This document shows, piece after piece, positions 46,502-64,000 of a stretch of DNA of 64,000 nucleotides. Origin of the DNA: Myxococcota bacterium (GTDB lineage Bacteria; Myxococcota_A; Polyangia; Nannocystales; Nannocystaceae); assembly GCA_039028615.1 (NCBI GenBank), contig JBCCHT010000004.1:192001-256000 (forward strand), written 5' to 3'. Position numbers and translations under genes: made by a program. Position 1 is the first letter of the stretch; each line of letters starts with the position of its first letter. A model generated the notes under the pieces. The model was given only the letters and a program-made list of their open reading frames with translations. It ran no database searches and was not told where the DNA came from.

Positions 46502-49456
46502 TCAGACCCGCGCAGACGCGCTGGGCGCACTCGGCTTGGCGGTGACCTCGGCGGCCTCGGCCGCGGCGATCTCGGCCATCGCCTCTTCGTGGATCTCGAG
46601 CTCCGCCACGCCGCCGGGGATCACCAGCGACGCCACGGGCGTGCCCTCGGGAATCACCGAGCCGTCCATATGGGTGATGTCCGGCACGGGGTGGTCGGCT
46701 TCGTGCGCCACCAGCTTCTTCTCGAGCGACTTCTGCTCGGCCTCTTCGAGGGTCGTCCACCCCAGGCGACCGCGGCACTTGGGGAAGCGCGAGCAGCCCA
46801 GCCAGGGGCCACGCTTGCCGCGGCGGAGGTTGAGCGGCGCCTGCTCGCACTTGGGGCACTCGAGGTCCGTCACGAAGGGCGGCGGGGCGGGATATTTGAT
46901 GCCGGCCTTCTTGTCGAGGTTGATGACGTACGTGGTCTCCGGGTAGTTGACCGAAGCCAGGAAGGGCCCGAAGCGACCGTTGCGAAGCTCCATCTTGGAG
47001 CCGTCCTCGGGGCACTTGACGTCGACCAGCTCGGGCAGCAGCGGCCGCCCCTTGCGGTCGATGGGCGCCGAGTAGTCGCACTCGGGATAGGCGGTGCACG
47101 ACAGGAAGCGACCGTTGCGACCGAAGCGGTACTCGGTCCGCGACCCGCACTTGGGGCACTTGTAGATCGCCGGCTGCGTCTCCGCCTTGGCGTGGGTCAT
47201 CACGTCGTGGGCGCTCTCGAGCGCCTCGGCGAAGGGCCCGTAGAACGAGTGCAGCATGCCGATCCAGTCGGCGCTCTGCTCTTCGATCTTGTCGAGCTGC
47301 GCCTCCATGGCGCGCGTGTAGCCCAGGTCCATGAGGTCGGGGAACGCCTCTTGGAGCTTGTCGGAGACCACCTCGCCCAGGTCGGTGGCGTAAAACCGTC
47401 GGTCGAGCTGCTCGACGTACTTGCGGTCCTGGATGACGCCGATGATCGACGCGTAGGTCGACGGTCGGCCGATGCCCTCGGACTCGAGGGTCTTGACCAG
47501 CGACGCCTCGGTGTAGCGCGGGGGCGGGCTCGAGAAGCGCTGGTCGGCATCGATGCCGAAGGGCGCCGTCGTCTGGCCCTTCTCGAAGGACGGCAGGGTC
47601 TGCTCGTCCGACGCGGTCGGCACCCCGGCCACCCGATAGAAGCCGTCGAAGGCGAGCACGCGACCGGTGGCCTTGAGCACGGCGCCGGTCTTGCGATCGC
47701 TGCGCTCGAAGAACACCGCGGTGGCGTCCCACTTGGCGGGCACCATCTGGCTGGCCACGAAGCGGCGCCAGATGAGGTCGTAGAGCTTGAGCTGGTCGGG
47801 GGTCAGGGCCGCGGCCAAGGCCGACGGCTCGCGATGAACCCCGGTGGGCCGAATCGCCTCGTGAGCCTCCTGGGCGTCCTTGTTGGCCGAGGAGTACACG
47901 TTCGGCTTCTCCGGCAGGTAGTCGGGGCCGAGCTCGGTGATGTGCTTGCGAGCCTCCTCGATCGCCTCGGGGGCGATGTTGGTGGAGTCGGTTCGCATAT
48001 AGGTGATGAGACCGACCTGGCCCTCGCCGGGGACGTTGACACCTTCGTACAGCGACTGGGCCGTTCGCATGGTCCGCTGGGCGGAGAAGCCCAGGCGGTT
48101 GGCGGCCGCGATCTGCAGGCTCGAGGTGATGAACGGGGCCGACGGGCGGCTGGTGGTGCGCCGGGTCTCGATGTTCTTGACCGAGTAGCGGCTGCTCGCA
48201 TCGACCTGCCCGCTGAGCGTGCGGCGGAAGCGAGCGGGGCCGCGCCCCTCGGGATCTTCTTCGCTGGTGACCTGCACCTTCACCAGGCCGACCGCTTCGG
48301 CCACGGCCTTGATCTCGCCAGACAGATCGCGCGGGTCGTCGGCCTTGCAGCCCAGGGAGAAGCGCTTCCCGTCGAGCTCGACCAGCTCCGCCCCCAGGCC
48401 TCCGTTGGCGGCCAGCCAGGCGTTCTTGCTCTTGAGGGTGGGGCCCTTGCCCTTCTCGTCGACGGTGGCCAGCAGCTCGCGCCACTGCGTCCCGAGCGTG
48501 GTGGAGGCGTCGACCTTCAGCGCGAGCTGGGCGGTCACACGCCACGACTCGTCGGGGATGAAGGCTCGAATCTGGCGCTCGCGCTCGACCACCAGACGCA
48601 CGGCCACCGACTGCACGCGGCCGGCCGAGAGCCCTCGCGCCACCTTCTTCCACAGGAGCGGCGAGGCCTGGTAGCCCACGATGCGATCGAGGATCCGCCG
48701 CGCCTGTTGCGCGTTGACCTTGTTCTCGTCGATGGGGTGCGGCTTGGCGAAGGCGCGATGCACCTCGGTCTTGGTGATGGCGTTGAACACCACCCGCTTG
48801 GCCTCTTTGGGAGCGATGCCCAGCTCTTGTGCGAGGTGCCAGGCAATGGCCTCTCCCTCGCGGTCGAGGTCGGTCGCGAACCAGACGTCGGAGGCTTGCT
48901 TGGCCAGGCGCTTGAGCTCGGCGACCGTCTTGGCCTTGCCGCTCAGCACCGTATAGGTGGGCTTGAAATCGTTATCGAGGTCGACGCCGGGGACCGGCTG
49001 TTTGACCCCCTTGGGGGCCTTCTGCGGCAGGTCGCGAATGTGGCCGACCGAGGCGTGTACGATAAAATCCGACCCGAGATACTTGTTGATGGTCTTGGCC
49101 TTCGCCGGACTCTCGACGATCACCAGCTGACGGCCCTCGCCCGAAGGCGGAGCAGTTTGGGTTCGAGTCCGAGCTTTGCTCGTCTTCTTGAGGCCGGTGG
49201 TCTTCGTCGCGGCCTTCTTCTTCGCCGCGGTCTTCTTCTTCGCGGTCGTCTTCTTCTTCGCCGCGGTCTTCTTCTTCGCAGTCGTCTTCTTCTTGGCTGC
49301 GGTCTTCTTCTTGGCCGTCGTCTTCTTGGCTGCGGTCTTCTTCGCGGCCGTCTTGGCAGTCTTCTTCGCCACCTTCTTGGCGGTCTTCTTGGCCGCCTTC
49401 TTGGTGGTCTTCTTTGCCGCCTTCTTGGCGGTCTTCTTCTTCGTCGTTGCTGCCAT
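46502..49456 (-). CDS. topA: DNA topoisomerase I (type IA) with N-terminal Lys-rich repeats and C-terminal Zn ribbons
   Basis: 'LVIVESPAKAKTI', 'ATDLDREGEAI', 'SAGRVQS', 'ITYMRTDS', 'QEAHEAIRPT', 'GIGRPSTY', CxxC ribbons. Confidence 0.97.
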   Translation of the reverse strand: MAATTKKKTAKKAAKKTTKKAAKKTAKKVAKKTAKTAAKKTAAKKTTAKKKTAAKKKTTAKKKTAAKKKTTAKKKTAAKKKAATKTTGLKKTSKARTRTQTAPPSGEGRQLVIVESPAKAKTINKYLGSDFIVHASVGHIRDLPQKAPKGVKQPVPGVDLDNDFKPTYTVLSGKAKTVAELKRLAKQASDVWFATDLDREGEAIAWHLAQELGIAPKEAKRVVFNAITKTEVHRAFAKPHPIDENKVNAQQARRILDRIVGYQASPLLWKKVARGLSAGRVQSVAVRLVVERERQIRAFIPDESWRVTAQLALKVDASTTLGTQWRELLATVDEKGKGPTLKSKNAWLAANGGLGAELVELDGKRFSLGCKADDPRDLSGEIKAVAEAVGLVKVQVTSEEDPEGRGPARFRRTLSGQVDASSRYSVKNIETRRTTSRPSAPFITSSLQIAAANRLGFSAQRTMRTAQSLYEGVNVPGEGQVGLITYMRTDSTNIAPEAIEEARKHITELGPDYLPEKPNVYSSANKDAQEAHEAIRPTGVHREPSALAAALTPDQLKLYDLIWRRFVASQMVPAKWDATAVFFERSDRKTGAVLKATGRVLAFDGFYRVAGVPTASDEQTLPSFEKGQTTAPFGIDADQRFSSPPPRYTEASLVKTLESEGIGRPSTYASIIGVIQDRKYVEQLDRRFYATDLGEVVSDKLQEAFPDLMDLGYTRAMEAQLDKIEEQSADWIGMLHSFYGPFAEALESAHDVMTHAKAETQPAIYKCPKCGSRTEYRFGRNGRFLSCTAYPECDYSAPIDRKGRPLLPELVDVKCPEDGSKMELRNGRFGPFLASVNYPETTYVINLDKKAGIKYPAPPPFVTDLECPKCEQAPLNLRRGKRGPWLGCSRFPKCRGRLGWTTLEEAEQKSLEKKLVAHEADHPVPDITHMDGSVIPEGTPVASLVIPGGVAELEIHEEAMAEIAAAEAAEVTAKPSAPSASARV
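49200..49440 (-). repeat. Coding Lys/Ala/Thr tandem repeats (TAKK, TAAKKK, TTAKKK) in the TopA N-terminus
   Basis: 12- and 18-bp imperfect units rich in TTCTT on the + strand. Confidence 0.85.
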
Positions 49457-55153: not shown

Positions 55154-56539
<1,386 letters not shown>

Positions 56540-56583
56540 GCCGCCACTTTTGTCGGGGGCGTCGCCGCGGTACGTTCCCCGGC

Positions 56584-56841
56584 ATGTCCCATCACCCCAC
56601 TGACTTTCAGGGCTCCGTGATCGATGCCATCCGCGAAGCGGTCGAGGCAGCGATTCCCGACAGCAAAGCGCAGGTCGACGGCGGCGGCGGGCACTACACC
56701 ATCGAGGTCACCGCGGCCGCGTTCGAGGGTAAGTCCATGCTGCAGAAACAACGCATGGTCCTGTCCTCCATCAAGCACCTGATGGCCGGAGACCGGGCCC
56801 CCGTGCACGCGGTCGACAGCATCAAGACCCACCTGGCCTAG
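56584..56841 (+). CDS. BolA/IbaG family protein
   Basis: 'GGHY.I.V....FEGKS.LQKQRMV', 'VHA'. Confidence 0.88.
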   Translation: MSHHPTDFQGSVIDAIREAVEAAIPDSKAQVDGGGGHYTIEVTAAAFEGKSMLQKQRMVLSSIKHLMAGDRAPVHAVDSIKTHLA

Positions 56842-56930
56842 GCCGAACTCTCGGCCGGCACATCCGACATCTGCCTACCTATTTCGGACTCATGCCGGAA
56901 AAACGGGCTCGGGTGGCATCCAAAGAGACG

Positions 56931-58298
56931 GTGAGGCGCAAGACCATCGTAGGTCTCGGCCGAGCCCCGCTGAGCGTCGTTGGTTGGACGCTGGTCGGGC
57001 TCGTCGGGAGCGGCTGCCAAGACCTCCCCACGGAGGCCCAAGGAACGGGCGGCGACACGGGTTCCGCGACCGAGCCGATGGCCACGACGGTCGACGAGAG
57101 CATGCTCGCCGACACCACCGCGACCGGCACCGACAGTTCCGCAGGAGCCGGTGAGAGCACGAGCACCACCTCGCCGGGCACGACCACCGAGGACGACGCG
57201 AGCGACTCCAGCAGCGAGACGACCGCGGCCCCCGAGCCCTTGTGCGGAGACGGCTTCGTCGTGCCCACCGAGCAGTGCCACGTGCTCGGCCCGGCCATCG
57301 AGCTCACGCCCTCCCCCGAGCGCCTCGCGATCGTCGACTTCGACGAGGACGGTGCCCTCGACCTGTTGGTCAGCAACCGCCTCTCTCCCGAAGTGCATGC
57401 CCTGTGGGGTGTGGGCACGGGTGATTTTCTCGCGCCCCAGCTGCTGGTCACCGCGAGCGCCAACGTCGAAGACCTCGTCGCGGCCGACTACAGCGGCGAC
57501 GGCACCCCCGATCTCGTGCTCACCGACACCCCGGGCCTTCGGGTCGTGTCCTACGCCGGTAGCGGCGACGGAGGGCTGTTCTTCGCCGGGCAATACCCTC
57601 TGCCGCTGGCCCCGACGCGGCTGGTCACTGGCGACATCGATGGCGACGGCACCCCCGATCTCGTCGCGGCCGGCAACACCGTCGCGACGCTCATGCGAGG
57701 CAACGGCCTCGCCGGGTTCATCCCCCAGCAAGACCTCTCCATGCCCACGGGGCCCCACTACTTGGGCCTGCCCGACCTCGACGGCAACGGCGACCTGGAC
57801 TTCGTCACCGTCAATCAGGGGCGCGGCGGCAACACGACCTGCTTTTTCAACCAAGGCACCGAGTTCGGCGAGAGCACCATCCACGACACCGCCTCGGCGC
57901 CGCGGGGCCTCGCGTGGGGCGACATCGACGAAAACGGCACGCTCGACCTGCTGGTCACCCACATCACGGGCGCCTCCGTCGGCATCCTGCTGGGCGAAGG
58001 CGCGGGTGGGATCGCGGCCCAGTCGCTGCTCATGCTCGAGGATACCGACCCCCGCTCGGTGCAGCTCGCCGACTTCGATCGCGACGGGCACCTCGACATC
58101 GTCGTCGCGCACTTCAACCCGGGCCTCGTCGTCATGCACATGGGCCTCGGTGACGGGACCTTCGTCCCCGGACCGCGCTTCGAGGTCACCACCCCCGGCG
58201 ACCTGTGGGTCGACGACCTCAACGACGACGAGGTCCCCGACGTGGTCATCATGCGACCGCTGTCCGGTGCCCTGCAGGTGCTCTACTCGCAGCCGTAG
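56931..58298 (+). CDS. FG-GAP/VCBS repeat lipoprotein
   Basis: Lipobox 'GSGC', Thr/Ser linker, about 7 'D.D.DG..DL' repeats. Start is 56892 or 56931. Confidence 0.85.
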   Translation: MRRKTIVGLGRAPLSVVGWTLVGLVGSGCQDLPTEAQGTGGDTGSATEPMATTVDESMLADTTATGTDSSAGAGESTSTTSPGTTTEDDASDSSSETTAAPEPLCGDGFVVPTEQCHVLGPAIELTPSPERLAIVDFDEDGALDLLVSNRLSPEVHALWGVGTGDFLAPQLLVTASANVEDLVAADYSGDGTPDLVLTDTPGLRVVSYAGSGDGGLFFAGQYPLPLAPTRLVTGDIDGDGTPDLVAAGNTVATLMRGNGLAGFIPQQDLSMPTGPHYLGLPDLDGNGDLDFVTVNQGRGGNTTCFFNQGTEFGESTIHDTASAPRGLAWGDIDENGTLDLLVTHITGASVGILLGEGAGGIAAQSLLMLEDTDPRSVQLADFDRDGHLDIVVAHFNPGLVVMHMGLGDGTFVPGPRFEVTTPGDLWVDDLNDDEVPDVVIMRPLSGALQVLYSQP

Positions 58299-58305
58299 TA
58301 CGCCG

Positions 58306-58725
58306 TCAGCCGTCGAGCATCGCCAACGCAGCGGCCTCGGTGATGCACTCCCGCTCGCCGGCCATCGCATAGCCATCGGGCTTGCGATCGATGAACCACT
58401 CCTTGACCAGGCTGACGCCGCTGCGGTCGTCGAGGCTGCCCAAGGTCACCGACGTCGTGCCCTGGTAGGGGCCTTCGGCCGTCAGGCGCCAGAACAGGCT
58501 GGAGCCGCAGCGGTTGCAGAACGCCCGCTGCGCCAGATCCGACGACTGGAACCAGGTCAGCGACTCCTGCCGCTCGAACTCCAGCGACTCGACGAAGACC
58601 GCGATCCACGGGCCGCCCGACCAGCGCTGGCACATCTCGCAGTGACACACGCTCGCCCGATCCGGCTTGGTGCCCCGCGCCGTGAAGGCCACGGCGCCAC
58701 ACAGACACTTCCCGCTTCGGTCCAT
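58306..58725 (-). CDS. GFA (CENP-V) family Zn protein
   Basis: 'G.CLCGAV', 'CHCEMCQR', 'R.FC..CGS'. Confidence 0.92.
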   Translation of the reverse strand: MDRSGKCLCGAVAFTARGTKPDRASVCHCEMCQRWSGGPWIAVFVESLEFERQESLTWFQSSDLAQRAFCNRCGSSLFWRLTAEGPYQGTTSVTLGSLDDRSGVSLVKEWFIDRKPDGYAMAGERECITEAAALAMLDG

Positions 58726-58874
58726 CGTTGCCCTATAGCACGGCGCGAGAACGCACCCGAACGCCCCTGCTGGCCGCAGCGAATCACCGTCGTCTTTTTT
58801 TCGAGCCGAGGCTGTAACGATTCGGCCGCTCGTGAATCAAGGGATGTGCGGGGAGAAATGGCTCGAGACAAACG

Positions 58875-59846
58875 GTGCAGGCCCTAGGATTTGACTCAGC
58901 ATTCGGCGACGAACGGTTCACTCCACCGACCGAGCACGCGCAGCTGTTCATGCCGCTGCGCCCCGCAGCGAAGACACCCGCGGCGGACCTGTCGCCGTGG
59001 CTCGTGGGCTGGGCCGAGAACGTCGGGCTCACCGAGCACGTATCGCCATCGAGCATCGTCGAGCTCCGGTTCGGCGTGCTCGTCGACGCCGCCTTCCCGC
59101 ATGCCTCCGAGGACCGACGACGGCTCGCGGCGGCCTGGATGCTGCTGCTGTGCCTGCTCGACGACTTCGCCGAGACCCACGAGGGCTCGAGCCGAACGCT
59201 GGCCGCGAGGCTCGAGTGCCTCCAGCTACGGCTCGGCGGCACCCGGCGCCTGGGCTCGAGCCCCGACGTGCTCGGCCGGGCGTGTGACCGCTTCCATCGC
59301 CTGACGACGCGAACGGGCACGATGCATCGCTTCCATCGCGAGGTGGGCACGTTGTTCGCGGCGTACGTCGAGGAGCACGCGTTCCACGGTCACCCACCCC
59401 ACACGGGACTGCAGCGCCATGTCGCGCTGCGCCGAACGACGTCGGGCGTGGCCACGGTCCAGGCGCTATTTCCGTTGATGACCGGCTACCTGTGGCCCGA
59501 ACGGCGCCGCCGAGTCCAACAGCTCGCCGAGTGGGCGAGCGACCTCATCGCGTGGAGCAACGACCTGTGGACGGCCGAGGTCGAGCGAGACACCCGGGCG
59601 CACAACCTGCTGTTCGTCCTCGAACGAGCCCACGGTCTCGAGCCGCTCTACGCCCGCCGAAGCCTGGTCTCCATGCACAACGTGTTGATGCGCCGGTTCG
59701 TGTCGCTGGTGCGGGTCCTGCTCCACAACGACCTCGAGCCCACGACGCGGGCCTTCGTCGCGATGCAGGTGGCCATGGTCCGCGCCCACTACGACTGGGC
59801 CGGGGTCACGGGTCTGTACGCAGAGCTGGCAATGGACCCGCGCTGA
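58875..59846 (+). CDS. Class I terpene synthase-like protein, divergent
   Basis: 'LDDFAE', 'RRTTSG', 'NDLWTAEVE...HNL', C-terminal 'WAGVTGLY'. Confidence 0.7.
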   Translation: MQALGFDSAFGDERFTPPTEHAQLFMPLRPAAKTPAADLSPWLVGWAENVGLTEHVSPSSIVELRFGVLVDAAFPHASEDRRRLAAAWMLLLCLLDDFAETHEGSSRTLAARLECLQLRLGGTRRLGSSPDVLGRACDRFHRLTTRTGTMHRFHREVGTLFAAYVEEHAFHGHPPHTGLQRHVALRRTTSGVATVQALFPLMTGYLWPERRRRVQQLAEWASDLIAWSNDLWTAEVERDTRAHNLLFVLERAHGLEPLYARRSLVSMHNVLMRRFVSLVRVLLHNDLEPTTRAFVAMQVAMVRAHYDWAGVTGLYAELAMDPR

Positions 59847-59850
59847 GGCC

Positions 59851-60735
59851 TCAGCCGTCGCCTTCGACCCTCGCCAGCACCCACTCCTCGAGCATCTCCA
59901 TCACGGGCGCCCGCAGCTCGGTCGGCTCGTTGTGCAGCTCGTGGTAGTAGCCGGCGAAACAGTGCAGGCTATGCCCGCGGTCGCCCGCGTCGGGGATCGA
60001 GCGAAACGCAGCAATGCCCGCCTCGTGGCTGCAGACGGTGTCGCCCGTGCCCACGTACCAGAGCATCGGCACGTCGATGCTGCCGACGTCCGCCTTCACC
60101 CGCTCGGCCGCGCGCTGCATGGCGCCGAACCACCCCGCGGTCACCACCCCGACCCGGCGCGGGTCCTTGCGGTAGCGCTCGACCTCGGCCGGGTCGCGAC
60201 AGATGGCCTCCTCGGGGATCCCGGTGGGCAGGCTCAGGCCGGGGGCCAAGCGAGAGGCGACGTTGCCGACCCAGCGCTTGACCGGGTTGACCTTCACCGC
60301 GACCTCGATGAGCGGGCTGCTGATCATCGCCCCCGCCAGCGGAATCGCCTTGGCGTGGTCGAGCAGGTAGGTCAGCGAGATGAGCCCCCCCATGCTGTGC
60401 CCGAACAGAAACCAGGGGATCTCGCCCGGCCGCTGCTCGGCGGGCAGCGACTCGGCGTAGGTCTCGATGACCCGCCGGAGGTCCCGCGCGTAGTCCTCGA
60501 AGGCGTCGACATGGCCGCGGCGGCCCCCCGAGTGGCCCTGCCCGCGGTGATCGAGGCCGAAGCACCGGGCCCCCAGGGCACCGAAGATCTTGGCGAGCCG
60601 ATCGTAGCGCCCGATGTGCTCGGCGCCCCCGTGCACGATCACCACGACGAAACGCGGCTCGTTCTTCGGCTCCCAACCCTCGACTCGCAGGGTCGTACCG
60701 TCCGCCGCCTCGATCGTGCGCTCGTGATGGTTCAC
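59851..60735 (-). CDS. Lysophospholipase / monoacylglycerol lipase family hydrolase
   Basis: 'VHG.AEH.GRY', 'DHRGQG.S.GRRG', 'GHSMGG', 'YHELHNE'. Confidence 0.92.
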   Translation of the reverse strand: MNHHERTIEAADGTTLRVEGWEPKNEPRFVVVIVHGGAEHIGRYDRLAKIFGALGARCFGLDHRGQGHSGGRRGHVDAFEDYARDLRRVIETYAESLPAEQRPGEIPWFLFGHSMGGLISLTYLLDHAKAIPLAGAMISSPLIEVAVKVNPVKRWVGNVASRLAPGLSLPTGIPEEAICRDPAEVERYRKDPRRVGVVTAGWFGAMQRAAERVKADVGSIDVPMLWYVGTGDTVCSHEAGIAAFRSIPDAGDRGHSLHCFAGYYHELHNEPTELRAPVMEMLEEWVLARVEGDG

Positions 60736-60828
60736 GCCCGGGATTAGAGCGCACGAGCGGCCATGAAGGAAGGGCGAGCCTCGATCCCGAGACTCGCCCT
60801 ACTCTTGCGCCATGAACCTCGATGGCGC

Positions 60829-62118
60829 TTAGAACATCTCGCGGACCCAGCTGGTGAAGCGACGCGCCAGCCCCGGCCCTTCGTCACGGGGACGCATGCC
60901 GCCGCCGACACGCGGCGCGGCCTCGATGGGCATGGGGTCGTGAGTGGCTCCGTAGAGCACCAGACCGACGCCGGTCGAGAACTTGGGGTCCTGAATCATC
61001 CCGGCGAAACCGCCTTCGGTGAGTCGAATCTTCTGACGCCCGGCGGTCGCGGTGGCCACCCCGGTGGGCACGCCCTTGCGAACCGGCATCTGGAAGATGT
61101 CCTCGGCGATCTCCAGCATGCCCTCCATCTGCGAGGCGCCACCGGTGAGCACGAGGCCGCTGGCGGCCAATTCGGCGCACCCGCTCGCGAGCAGCTCCTG
61201 CTGAGCGAGCAGGAAGATCTCCTCGACCCGCGGCTCGATGACCTCGGCCAGGAAGCGACGCTTGAACTCGCGGGGCGGACGGGGACCGACGCCGGGCACG
61301 GCGATCTGGTCGTCCCCCTCGATCATGCTGATGAGGGCACAGCCGTGCTTGCGCTTGATCTGCTCCGCCTCGGCGACCGAGGTCCGCAGCCCATGGGCCA
61401 CGTCCTGGGTGATGCGATGCCCGCCCATGACGATGACCGAGGTGAAGACGTTGCTGCCCTCGCTATAGACGGCCACGTCGGTGGTGCCGCCGCCGATGTC
61501 GATGAGCGCGACCCCGAGGTCCTTCTCGTCGTCGTGCAGCACCGCGGTGGAAGACGCGATGGGCTCGAGCACGACCTCGATGACCTCGAGCCCTGCCCGG
61601 TTGCAGCACTTGATGATGTTCTGGACCGAGGTGACCGCCGCCGTGATGACGTGGGCGCGGACCTCCATGCGCACCCCGTTCATGCCGATGGGGTCGCGGA
61701 TCTGGCCCTGGCCGTCGATCATGTACTCGAGCGGCACGGTGTGGATGATCTGGCGATCGAGCGGAATATTGACCGCCTTGGCCTGCTCGATGACGCGGGC
61801 GACGTCGGTCTCTTCGACCTCGCGCGAGCGCATGCTGACCTGCCCCAGGCTGTTGAAGCCTCGGACATGACCGCCCGCGATGCCCACGAACACCGACTGC
61901 ACGTCGGCCGCCGCCATCTGCTCGGCCTCCTGAACCGCCTGCGCAATCGAGTTGGTCGTGGCCTCGATATTGACCACCACGCCCTGCCGTAGCCCCTCTG
62001 AAGGGCTGGTGCCGACGCCCAAGATCTCGATGCCCGCCTCGGTCACCTCCCCGATGAGGGCGGCGATCTTGGTGGTCCCGATGTCCAAGCCGCAGATGAT
62101 CTCTCCCACCTCTGCCAT
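60829..62118 (-). CDS. ftsA: Cell division protein FtsA
   Basis: 'GLDIGTTKI', 'GVVVNIE', 'DIGGGTTD', 'AEQIK', 'VLTGGASQ'. Confidence 0.97.
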   Translation of the reverse strand: MAEVGEIICGLDIGTTKIAALIGEVTEAGIEILGVGTSPSEGLRQGVVVNIEATTNSIAQAVQEAEQMAAADVQSVFVGIAGGHVRGFNSLGQVSMRSREVEETDVARVIEQAKAVNIPLDRQIIHTVPLEYMIDGQGQIRDPIGMNGVRMEVRAHVITAAVTSVQNIIKCCNRAGLEVIEVVLEPIASSTAVLHDDEKDLGVALIDIGGGTTDVAVYSEGSNVFTSVIVMGGHRITQDVAHGLRTSVAEAEQIKRKHGCALISMIEGDDQIAVPGVGPRPPREFKRRFLAEVIEPRVEEIFLLAQQELLASGCAELAASGLVLTGGASQMEGMLEIAEDIFQMPVRKGVPTGVATATAGRQKIRLTEGGFAGMIQDPKFSTGVGLVLYGATHDPMPIEAAPRVGGGMRPRDEGPGLARRFTSWVREMF

Positions 62119-62151
62119 GATCGTCTCCGCTGTCGCTTTCCGTCGGGCGGC

Positions 62152-63270
62152 CTAGTGGTACCGGGGCAGCTTGCCCTTGACCTTGCCTTTGCCCTTGTTC
62201 TTCTTGGATTTGTTCTTGCCCGCGTTGGCCTGTAGCTCGGCCTTGCGTGCAGCCTCGGCCGCCCGATCGGCGGCCCGTGCCTCGGCCTCCACCACCAACG
62301 AGGGGGCTTCCTTGGCCGGGAAGAAGCTGGCCACGATGCGATCGGGTCGCCCCGGGGCTCGGCTTCCGTCGAGATGAATCAGTGCGAGCTTCTCCGCCTC
62401 TTCACCGAGGGCGGCTCGCAGCGCGTCGTAGCGAGCGAGCGCAGGCTCGACGTCGCCGCGACCCAGTCGCAGCTGCGTGCCCATCTCCGCGGTGTAGAGC
62501 GTCAGCTCGCCGGTCTCTCCGACGTGCAGCTCCGACAGTCGCGGGCGTCGCTTGTCTTGGTACGCGCCCAGTGCCTCGAGCCCCTCCATCACGCGCTCGT
62601 GCATGAGCTCGGGCCGAGAGAAGAGGCCGGAGTCGTCGAAGCCGGTGAGCACGGGAAGTCGCCCCCGCTCGCCAGCCTCGAGAGCCTTGAAGGACACCCC
62701 CTCGTCGTCGACGAGGACCAGACGCCCCGCGGCGAGCAACACCGCGACCGGCTCGTGCTCTTCCACGGTGACCGACAGGCTGTCCGGCAACACCCGCACC
62801 ACGGACGCCTTGGCCACCCAAGGGTCGGCCGCAATCCGAGACGCGACCTCGTCGAGGTCGAGCGAGAGGATGTTGGTGCCCGGCGACAGAGCCATCAGCT
62901 CACGCAACCGGGCGTCATCGATGTGTGGGGTCGGCTCGTAGGTGAGCCCCCGAACCTCGAAGCGAGGCGAAGTCGTCGCGTACGCGTAGCCCTCTTTGAC
63001 CCCCACCAGCAGGCCCCAGGCGAGGGTCCCGACGATCCCCAAACGCAGGCTCACGCCCGCGATCCGACGGGGCCAGCTCGGGCCACGGGGGGTCGCCTCA
63101 GTGCGACGGGCCTTGCGCAGGGCCGCCGCAGAGCCCCGATCGGCCTTCGTTTCGGCCTTGGAGCTGCTGGGCTTCCGCCGGGCGCCCGTGGTCTGGCGAC
63201 GACGGTTCCCACGTCGGGCCGGACCGGTTCGGCGCTTGGTCAGGCGGGCAGCTAGGCGACTGATCTGCAC
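62152..63270 (-). CDS. ftsQ: Cell division protein FtsQ
   Basis: Basic N-tail, TM and POTRA 'NILSLDL......DPWV..ASV.R.LPD.L.V.VEE..P'. Directly upstream of ftsA. Start is uncertain. Confidence 0.85.
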   Translation of the reverse strand: MQISRLAARLTKRRTGPARRGNRRRQTTGARRKPSSSKAETKADRGSAAALRKARRTEATPRGPSWPRRIAGVSLRLGIVGTLAWGLLVGVKEGYAYATTSPRFEVRGLTYEPTPHIDDARLRELMALSPGTNILSLDLDEVASRIAADPWVAKASVVRVLPDSLSVTVEEHEPVAVLLAAGRLVLVDDEGVSFKALEAGERGRLPVLTGFDDSGLFSRPELMHERVMEGLEALGAYQDKRRPRLSELHVGETGELTLYTAEMGTQLRLGRGDVEPALARYDALRAALGEEAEKLALIHLDGSRAPGRPDRIVASFFPAKEAPSLVVEAEARAADRAAEAARKAELQANAGKNKSKKNKGKGKVKGKLPRYH

Positions 63271-63436
63271 TGGAATTCGCGTCCTAAGCCCCGTTTGGAG
63301 GCCGATTTCGGGAATAACGCCCTCGGCTCGACAACGCAAAAAATCACCAAGCACGAGACCTCGTCCGGCGATTTTGGGGTGGTCGCAGGCCCAGCGAGAT
63401 CCACTCGTAGATCTCGGTCCAAACCCGGCCGCACGA

Positions 63437-63460
63437 AATTCGGCCGAATTCGGCCGAATT
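63437..63460. repeat. Perfect 24-bp palindrome / 10-bp tandem repeat AATTCGGCCGAATTCGGCCGAATT
   Basis: Read directly; self-complementary. Confidence 0.9.
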
Positions 63461-63464
63461 GGGC

Positions 63465-63492
63465 TTGCCACGAGATCGCACTCGCCTACAAT
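63465..63492 (+). promoter_or_regulatory. Sigma70-type promoter for the histone gene
   Basis: TTGCCA-N16-TACAAT about 70 bp upstream of the ATG. Confidence 0.6.
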
Positions 63493-63563
63493 CGCGAGCG
63501 CGGCGCCCTAGAGTGCCGATCTCGACCGTTACCGAACCCAAGCTGTTCCGCGAGGAAAACCCC

Positions 63564-63773
63564 ATGGCGAAATCGAAGAAAACCGCGAAGAAGAAGGCCC
63601 GTGAAGTTGTTGTCGTTGGCTCGAAGGTCAAGGACGTGATCCGTAACGCTGGCTTGCGCAGCGACGGAGAGCTCGTCCAGGCCGTGTCCGACAAGGTTCA
63701 CGATCTACTCGAGGCGGCCATTGCCCGCGCCCAGTCCAACAAGCGCGGCACCGTTCGTCCCTACGACCTGTAG
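63564..63773 (+). CDS. Bacterial histone-fold protein (Bd0055/HBb-like) with a Lys-rich N-tail
   Basis: GAGGA ribosome-binding site, 69 aa. 'EVVVVGSKVKDVIR...A..RA.SNKRGTVRPYDL' matches the histone R-x-T-V-x-x-x-D L2/alpha3 signature. Confidence 0.85.
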   Translation: MAKSKKTAKKKAREVVVVGSKVKDVIRNAGLRSDGELVQAVSDKVHDLLEAAIARAQSNKRGTVRPYDL

Positions 63774-63802
63774 TCGACGATCGGCCTAAAGGCCAATCGA
63801 GG

Positions 63803-63840
63803 AAGGCGGCATCCCCAACCGGGGAGCCGCCTTTCTCTCG
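63803..63840 (+). terminator. Intrinsic terminator after the histone gene
   Basis: AAGGCGGC-A-TCCCC/GGGGA-GCCGCCTT stem with a pyrimidine tail. Confidence 0.7.
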
Positions 63841-64000
63841 TTCGAAGACCGGTTCGATCTAGCGACCGTAGCCGTCTTCGCCCCGGCGCCGCAGGAAGGC
63901 GGGAATCTCCGAGGGATCGGGAGCAGCACCATCGCCTCGGCTCCATCCGGCATGCGAGGCCGAAGCGGAGGGTCGACGACCGGTGGTGCTCATCGTGGCC

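Follow-up and report, generated by a model that had tools for sequence, protein, structure and literature searches.

The window, by which we mean the whole stretch of 64,000 nucleotides analysed here, carries near its end the gene of a small histone that is, by its sequence, of the face-to-face (FtF) type like HLp and not an HBb-type dimer; it is one of two old, long-retained paralogues, A (long-tailed, the gene in the window) and B (short-tailed), which occupy distinct loci and differ in sequence features. This conserved long-/short-tail pair is the new element, the A gene alone being one more tailed FtF histone. Probably, the observations are jointly explained by an FtF tetramer whose tails grip DNA, the A/B pair tuning compaction and lysine acetylation possibly acting as a bulk charge effect. 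A preliminary description had presented the gene as a Bdellovibrio-like histone with a possibly eukaryote-like tail; it holds as an observation, but the type is that of HLp and not of HBb, the tail is not new, and no code is indicated. Coordinates refer to the window unless a contig (C) of the source genome (G000) is named; G, L and P numbers are handles for genomes, loci and homologues.

The histone gene and its surroundings

The gene lies between ftsQ, from which it diverges, and ftsZ, with which it converges:

63564..63773, plus strand: FtF histone gene, type A (long-tailed paralogue), 69 residues, net charge +8
63552..63556, plus strand: Shine-Dalgarno sequence GAGGA, 7 nt ahead of the ATG (from the sequence)
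63465..63492, plus strand: sigma70-type promoter TTGCCA-N16-TACAAT, layout conserved in type-A loci
63459..63563, plus strand: rejected 35-codon extension of the 104-residue ORF call, unconserved in type-A orthologues
63799..63837, no strand: stable hairpin flanked by the stop codons of the histone gene and ftsZ, which converge (from fold stability)
62152..63471, minus strand: ftsQ, divergent from the histone (ORF call; the true start is probably downstream of the called GTG)
60829..62118, minus strand: ftsA (ORF call)
63859..64000, minus strand: ftsZ 3' end, convergent with the histone, the remainder lying beyond the window (L001)

The reading frame of 69 residues that had been described translates exactly as given, and the ribosome-binding site ascribed to it is present, with an SD-like word in 32 of 32 type-A orthologues. 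The first in-frame ATG, GTG or TTG after the histone ATG is codon 25, inside helix 1, which leaves no usable codon for translation to begin just after the tail; a start downstream of the tail is rejected. Within the tail itself, start codons are lacking in all 32 type-A orthologues. The longer call of 104 residues (TTG at 63459) was rightly suspected of masking the gene: it is a mis-call, rejected since it begins upstream of the -35 box and since its 35-residue extension is unconserved, with a mean identity of 11% and a stop within the 35 codons in 9 of the 32 orthologues. An upstream GTG (63513) was likewise rejected as the histone start. The gene also has the promoter of its own that had been claimed, in the same layout in most orthologues; a scan of 62800-64000 yields this one promoter, where 0.1 are expected in shuffles, and transcription would start near 63499.

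The terminator stands in a modified form. The consensus terminator scan returned none at the histone gene and the U-run is weak; the hairpin is nevertheless very stable (z = -6.2, with 0 of 200 shuffles equally stable), and it is labelled a terminator because of this fold, of similar hairpins in relatives and of the ends of RNA contigs, being probably a bidirectional one. In all four marine metatranscriptome runs compared, from one study (run X5, with a share of 0.12, was left out), Logan RNA contigs with 1-5 letters different span 63514/63515 to 63781-63840; as such contigs are blind to starts, strand and level, they give a weak hint of a monocistronic histone mRNA. Most of the length of ftsQ and ftsA had no near-identical RNA contigs in the same runs, which is no evidence of their silence.

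The division cluster itself (55154-64000 and L001) is rearranged: ftsZ precedes ftsQ-ftsA on the minus strand, the plus-strand histone gene is placed between them, and murC, also on the plus strand, is several kb off. The order ftsZ-ftsQ-ftsA is kept in two genomes without histone A. The C-terminus of FtsQ is a basic, Lys/Gly-rich stretch (62152-62230).

Fold and oligomeric state

63603..63770, plus strand: alpha3-truncated histone fold, with helices at residues 19-28 and 37-58 and a single turn at 66-68

The Pfam match, to DUF1931, is barely above cut-off; the fold is predicted concordantly by AlphaFold2, Foldseek, the PDB sequence search and a profile, which answers the doubt whether a histone fold is present at all. 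The AlphaFold2 monomer has a pLDDT of 80, falling below 50 in residues 1-9, and combines the histone fold with a shortened alpha2 and an alpha3 of 3-4 residues, as expected of an alpha3 histone. Its top Foldseek match is HLp (9QT0; rmsd 0.8 Å, TM(target) 0.95), with HBb chains at 1.0-1.2 Å. HLp 9QT0 is also the top match of the PDB sequence search (E 5e-10, against 0.045 for HBb, and 0.045-0.07 for HBb and HTkC), and a profile of 137 sequences gives the same order (3e-24 for HLp, 1e-12 for HBb). The resemblance to HBb/Bd0055 from which the preliminary description started is thus real, but second-best.

The tetramer interface comprises R55, S58, N59, and R61, with a clamp formed by R61, T63, and D68. 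Five of these residues (R55, N59, R61, T63, D68) never vary among the 81 copies compared (32 of A, 49 of B), and R55, N59, and R61 correspond to R49, N53, and R55 of HLp, which hold together the tetramer with which HLp wraps about 60 bp (Hu 2025, PMC12701072; here and below, cited work is drawn on for the parts consulted). The positions that contact DNA in HLp (S20, K21, K23, R27, S33, G35) are conserved in the histone. In PMC11390915, as far as consulted, FtF histones are defined by the interface Arg and Asn and by the motif RxTxxxxD without a conserved basic residue at x; here the motif reads R61-G62-T63...D68-L69-stop, the chain terminating directly after alpha3. The assignment to the FtF type rests on the presence and family-wide invariance of the HLp tetramer residues R55, N59, and R61, and the protein would most likely form a ring-shaped homotetramer around which about 60 bp are wound regardless of sequence, judging by its fold and interface residues.

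That the protein is instead an HBb-like dimer, bending or coating DNA and carrying the tail as a supplement, is highly improbable. Such a dimer would share the alpha3-truncated fold, with its matches to HBb chains, and the S-K motif; however, HBb carries S and D at the positions of R55 and N59, and an HBb-type dimer was rejected on this ground. The same partly consulted source (PMC11390915) defines bacterial dimer histones by the absence of the FtF interface Arg and Asn, and the consulted part of a preprint on HTkC reports that the interface Arg decides between wrapping and bending, loss of the equivalent Arg turning the protein into a dimer-like bender.

Homologues with a named source belong to Plesiocystis, Paraliomyxa, Enhygromyxa, and a Nannocystaceae bacterium, which points to Nannocystaceae as the host family. 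According to the legend of Figure 1A in Hu 2024 (PMC11317129), three genera of that family (Plesiocystis, Enhygromyxa, and Nannocystis) already have their histones in a published alignment.

A basic tail of conserved charge

63564..63602, plus strand: 13-residue basic N-terminal tail, 6 Lys and 1 Arg, net +7, pLDDT below 50 in residues 1-9

The tail carries most of the charge of the type-A protein (+7, against +1 for the core) and consists of two basic patches flanking a variable neutral linker; in histone A it includes Ser4 and Thr7. Its conservation, which had been proposed as a check, is one of charge near +7 across lengths, with a variable middle and variable Ser/Thr. Among 118 close homologues (three over-long proteins dropped), whose tails are biased toward similarity as the hits were chosen with the tail in the query, 88 have exactly 7 K+R at tail lengths of 8-23 residues, and K+R rises by 0.16 per added tail residue, where composition would give 0.50, the extra residues being mostly neutral; the 32 genome-derived A tails concur, with 6-9 K+R over 11-23 residues. 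The ends of the tail are conserved (A2 is present in all 118; counted back from the fold, K at -3/-4 and R at -1 recur in 109-112 of them), and its middle varies in length and sequence, with Ser or Thr at position 4 in 32 of 118. As the tail conserves charge and not sites, an electrostatic grip is the favored role: the disordered tail would supply a near-neutral core with most of its charge and a flexible hold on wrapped or linker DNA, which probably raises DNA affinity and compaction.

Among 72 distant single-domain homologues, 46 have at least 5 K/R ahead of the fold. Positively charged N-terminal tails on bacterial FtF histones have been published, with Myxococcota listed (Schwab et al., 2024, PMC11390915, consulted in part), and since such a tail is thus expected on an FtF histone, the tail as a headline is not new; most bacterial singlets lack long tails (Hocher 2023, PMC10627809, likewise in part). 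Within the source genome, Lys-rich N-termini are rare, 12 of 8,948 rough gene calls having at least 5 Lys in 13 residues. Topoisomerase I is likewise Lys-rich at its N-terminus (C4:238502-241456, about 46502-49456 of the window, minus strand), and further Lys/Ala/Thr-rich N-terminal tails occur at C46:11447-13084, C30:29005-30537, C22:83565-84530, C54:76294-76635, and C77:24333-24572; four of these five proteins gave no Pfam match over cut-off, the C77 protein lying outside the scan.

The preliminary description had gone further and taken the tail for a eukaryote-like one and a target of modification. The tail is in fact what one would look for in a eukaryote-type extension: basic, disordered, and translated. 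A site-specific code decoded by readers is not indicated. The reading that dedicated proteins write, erase, and read marks on specific Lys or Ser/Thr residues, with local regulation of chromatin as in eukaryotes, is improbable. It could draw on the conserved anchors at the two ends of the tail and on the preference for Lys over Arg in the tail (691:118, despite a genome of 68% GC), which is as compatible with modification as with plain charge and leaves room for acylation. It could further draw on the three Sir2 genes and one HDAC-family gene of the source genome; these are weakly informative, as Sir2 is found in 10 of 14 control genomes and the HDAC family in 9 of 14. Acetylated Lys-rich tails are known from Asgard histones (bioRxiv 2026.07.02.735847) and from Streptomyces HupS, where acetylation lowers DNA binding under the control of Sir2 (PMC11229371), both sources being used in part. 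Against a code stand the variable middle of the tail, with its inconstant position 4, and the distribution of SET proteins: the search of the source genome found none, and their co-occurrence with the long tail was rejected, SET being present in 18 of 29 genomes with A and in 17 of 22 without. A search for bromodomains returned no match, and its positive control was also silent, which makes it uninformative. Searched against the PDB, the first 22 residues gave no match at E≤10; the first residues of the tail may resemble the N-terminus of H3. What is plausible, by analogy, is a tuning of the tail's charge by lysine acetylation, which within the gripping-tail explanation might dampen the grip as a bulk effect.

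A conserved pair of long- and short-tailed paralogues

The source genome encodes a second FtF histone, type B (C5:108394-108585), with a tail of 8 residues and a core 82% identical to that of A; its net charge is +1 and that of its tail +3. At least one FtF histone is present in 51 of 51 family genomes. Of 55 genomes (G016, with a fragment at a contig edge, was dropped; the truncated B copy of G018 was counted as present and left out of the tail statistics), 27 from 8 genera have both types, 23 B only, and 5 A only. The two types are separated by the tail together with core positions 56, 60, and 62: K+R ranges are disjoint (6-9 in A, 1-4 in B), K60/G62 is found in 31 of 32 A copies; of the 49 B copies, 47 have C56 and all have S62. 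They are also separated by locus without any cross-over, A lying near ftsZ/ftsQ/ftsA in 28 of 32 loci and B after tsaE in 47 of 49. In a tree built on the 56-residue core, the B copies of 13 genera group as a starred clade (97/93); the A copies form no resolved clade on these 56 columns, and their orthology rests on synteny and the diagnostic residues. A duplication at the genus level, with the copies of the source genus held together, was rejected (p-AU 0.007). A and B are thus old paralogues, long retained at distinct loci and with distinct sequence features, as expected of histone variants.

The promoters differ as well: most of those of A read TTG-N16-TAnnAT and are preceded by phased A/T tracts, and those of B read TTT-N17/18-TATnGT. 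In the window, the tracts are:

63437..63460, no strand: three AATT tracts with 10-bp spacing, upstream of the -35 box (from the sequence)

Among the 4-mers upstream of type-A genes AATT ranks first, and the tracts may represent bent DNA or a UP-like element.

It is quite unlikely that A and B are redundant dosage copies between which tail length has drifted without meaning, for instance if Lys/AAA codons aid translation initiation. Either copy is indeed absent from some genomes (23 B-only, 5 A-only), and AAA is commoner among the Lys codons of the A tail (54 of 191) than in the core (7 of 134). Against redundancy stand the disjoint tail charges, the class-specific core residues, the distinct, conserved promoters, the joint retention in 27 genomes of 8 genera, and a tail charge held near +7 across lengths. 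If the two variants instead differ in grip, as the tail-grip explanation proposes, high- and low-affinity tetramers, or mixed ones, would tune compaction; mixed A/B tetramers are the speculative part of this step.

A was not found in 23 of the 55 genomes, a one-contig genome included, and in two B-only genomes the ftsZ-ftsQ interval holds no histone (of 5 fetched loci, these 2 had kept that order), so that the long tail is dispensable in several lineages. The source genome further carries three HU/IHF genes, so that the histones need not be its main nucleoid proteins. A divergent third class of single-domain histones, with Lys-rich tails of 17-18 residues, occurs in 4 of 4 genomes of a genus lacking A (g2: L052, L053, L100, L101; L034 belongs to the same set of observations), and two g4 genomes without A have a lengthened B tail; both could possibly compensate for the missing A.

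Several other relatives of the histones were seen. A third histone fold of the source genome stands behind a Cys-rich domain and has D at the FtF Asn (C1:401885-402076; L177:865-1698, minus strand); it is found in many family genomes and resembles the ZZ-type alpha3 histones described in the consulted part of PMC11390915. A group of B homologues has N-termini that by eye look like signal peptides (P0122, P0123, P0126, P0131, P0133, P0142, P0145, P0146, P0160, P0176, and P0254; also P0124, P0127, P0134, P0140, P0150, and P0211), some of them doubled and some joined to an RRM domain (P0124 and P0140 match Pfam RRM_1); these are possibly exported proteins of histone fold. P0152 and P0208 are mosaics, real or artefacts of assembly, in which a piece of histone is joined to fragments that resemble other small abundant proteins (GroES-like, pilin-like, and RRM-like).

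GATC sites and a candidate methylase

63474..63477, no strand: GATC in the promoter spacer, at position 4 (from the sequence)

Of the 32 A promoters, 27 have a GATC between the -35 and -10 boxes (at position 4 in 26, at position 3 in one), as has 1 of 46 B promoters, three B loci without a recognisable promoter being left out. It is retained where ftsQ is 2-3 kb off (G009, G015, G018) and absent in 4 of 12 genera; genus-weighted, its columns score 0.64-0.91, other spacer columns reaching 0.83. The site could also belong to a more extended site bound by a protein, or reflect common descent. As a general feature of promoter spacers in the source genome GATC was rejected (5 in 51, against 3.8 expected).

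Upstream of dnaA, GATC ranks first of 136 4-mers, with 85.5 occurrences against 36.5 expected (29 loci of 11 genera, L162 left out; background ratio 1.01), in a test whose shuffle is approximate and whose z-scores are all inflated by kinship; upstream of B it is also raised (21.6 against 13.6). A family-wide enrichment upstream of ftsZ is unsupported (rank 20 of 136; in the source genome alone, 4 in 175 bp). Single regions of the source genome stand out: the intergenic region of smc and an ftsY-like gene (C62:33300-33643, L176) has 9 GATC in 250 bp, the top of 3,442 upstream regions, and that upstream of dnaA on C18 (L151) has 11 in 700 bp, within the top 1%. Between dnaA and dnaN lies an AT-rich stretch suggestive of oriC.

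The candidate enzyme is a beta-class DNA methylase (C3:455556-456353; L175:3557-4354, minus strand), single-copy in 42 of 42 high-quality family genomes. It is 50-56% identical (55% to one) to the middle genes of operons in which a D12 methylase, a beta methylase, and DpnII follow each other, the next group being at 40-42%; the three-gene operon of the 55% match ends in a Pfam DpnII nuclease, a type that was found in 0 of 51 family genomes. Its match to the CcrM model is far below cut-off, and it is a candidate for an orphan, DpnA-type regulatory methylase of GATC, the sequence methylated by DpnA (PMC11904264, consulted in part), its target being judged from the 55% identity. The match in G005 has one TAG inside. 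A D12-class adenine methylase (C2:8377-9378; L135:5378-6379) is present in 51 of 51 family genomes, mostly in one copy and 56-65% identical in 9 of 9 fetched loci, with no nuclease seen beside it in the source genome; as a Dam it was rejected (24.9 bits on TIGR00571, cut-off 114.85), and no true Dam exceeds this cut-off in any of 51 genomes. At least 5 additional N6/N4 methylase matches occur in the source genome. The literature consulted, PMC12772301 included, holds no methylome of the family; partial m6A at GATC is reported from Myxococcus hansupus, a different lineage (PMC4765838).

GATC promoters, an orphan methylase, and the dnaA clusters together make a replication-timed expression of A possible, a proposal that extends the tail-grip explanation and does not replace it: A would be coupled to replication by methylation of its promoter GATC, hemimethylated after passage of the fork, and B would be independent of it. 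Such methylation-timed expression is speculative and rather unlikely. The contrast between A and B promoters speaks for it, as do the persistence of the site away from ftsQ, the place of A inside the ftsZ/ftsQA cluster, the single-copy DpnA-like enzyme in a family without DpnII, and the GATC richness before dnaA and smc; there is also precedent in E. coli, where Dam sites act on oriC and on the promoter of dnaA (PMC12369378, in the part consulted). It is weakened by an enzyme target that rests on 55% identity, with no family methylome found, by spacer columns other than GATC that are conserved to a similar degree, by genera without the site, by the enrichment upstream of B and the rank at ftsZ, by the lack of a true Dam, and by the inflated scores and approximate shuffle of the 4-mer test. 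The fullest version, a two-variant system with A timed by DpnA-type GATC methylation that also acts on dnaA and smc, B constitutive, A/B tetramers and Sir2-reversible acetylation, is unlikely. If true, it would parallel the replication-coupled and replication-independent histones of eukaryotes; if confirmed, the orphan DpnA-like methylase and the GATC clusters at dnaA and smc would represent a separate route to Dam-like cell-cycle epigenetics.

Comparison with known systems

The tail-grip explanation starts from a ring-shaped A tetramer that would wrap about 60 bp by homology to HLp of Leptospira perolatii (PDB 9QT0-9QT2, PMC12701072). As far as that source was consulted, the two proteins share the fold (rmsd 0.8 Å, 39% identity), the truncated alpha3, the tetramer residues, the DNA-contact positions, and a disordered N-terminus; in histone A, however, the N-terminus is about 6 residues longer and strongly basic. 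Beside A, its genome encodes a paralogue and HU/IHF, but Leptospira lacks HU and has a single histone; the HLp gene lies beside smc, that of histone A in a cell-division cluster. The tailed FtF histones of PMC11390915 have the same positively charged N-terminal tail; an A/B pair with separate loci and promoters is not mentioned in the parts of that paper examined. No paper on such a long-/short-tail pair in bacteria was found, although the supplementary figures of the same, partly consulted paper may already list it.

HBb/Bd0055 of Bdellovibrio (PMC11317129, PMC10627809, each in part) shares the alpha3 fold, the S-K motif, and the R-T-D clamp, but has neither equivalents of R55 and N59 nor the basic extension, and it is a dimer that bends DNA. 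With E. coli Dam at oriC and dnaA (PMC12369378) and DpnA of DpnII systems (PMC11904264), the family has in common GATC clusters upstream of dnaA and, in its case nuclease-free, a candidate GATC methylase; unlike Dam, the enzyme here is of the beta class, DpnA-like and predicted from sequence. HupS/HupB (PMC11229371, in part) is likewise a bacterial nucleoid protein with a Lys-rich tail and a charge-tuning model, but it has an HU fold and a long C-terminal repeat tail and is not homologous.

The literature examined yielded no functional test of a bacterial histone tail. The pair makes the role of prokaryotic histone tails directly testable, as it constitutes a natural matched control, two folds 82% identical with tails of +7 and +3, in cultured, harmless myxobacteria; type A is carried by the cultured Plesiocystis and Paraliomyxa. 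Among archaeal variants, in the parts consulted, those of Thermococcales (bioRxiv 2021.09.07.455978) are likewise long-retained paralogues, and the tailed ones of Asgard (bioRxiv 2026.07.02.735847) have Lys-rich, acetylatable tails; they are nucleosomal, whereas A and B are a bacterial FtF pair, known here from its genes, with which one can also ask whether variant-based tuning of chromatin occurs outside the archaeal-eukaryotic line.
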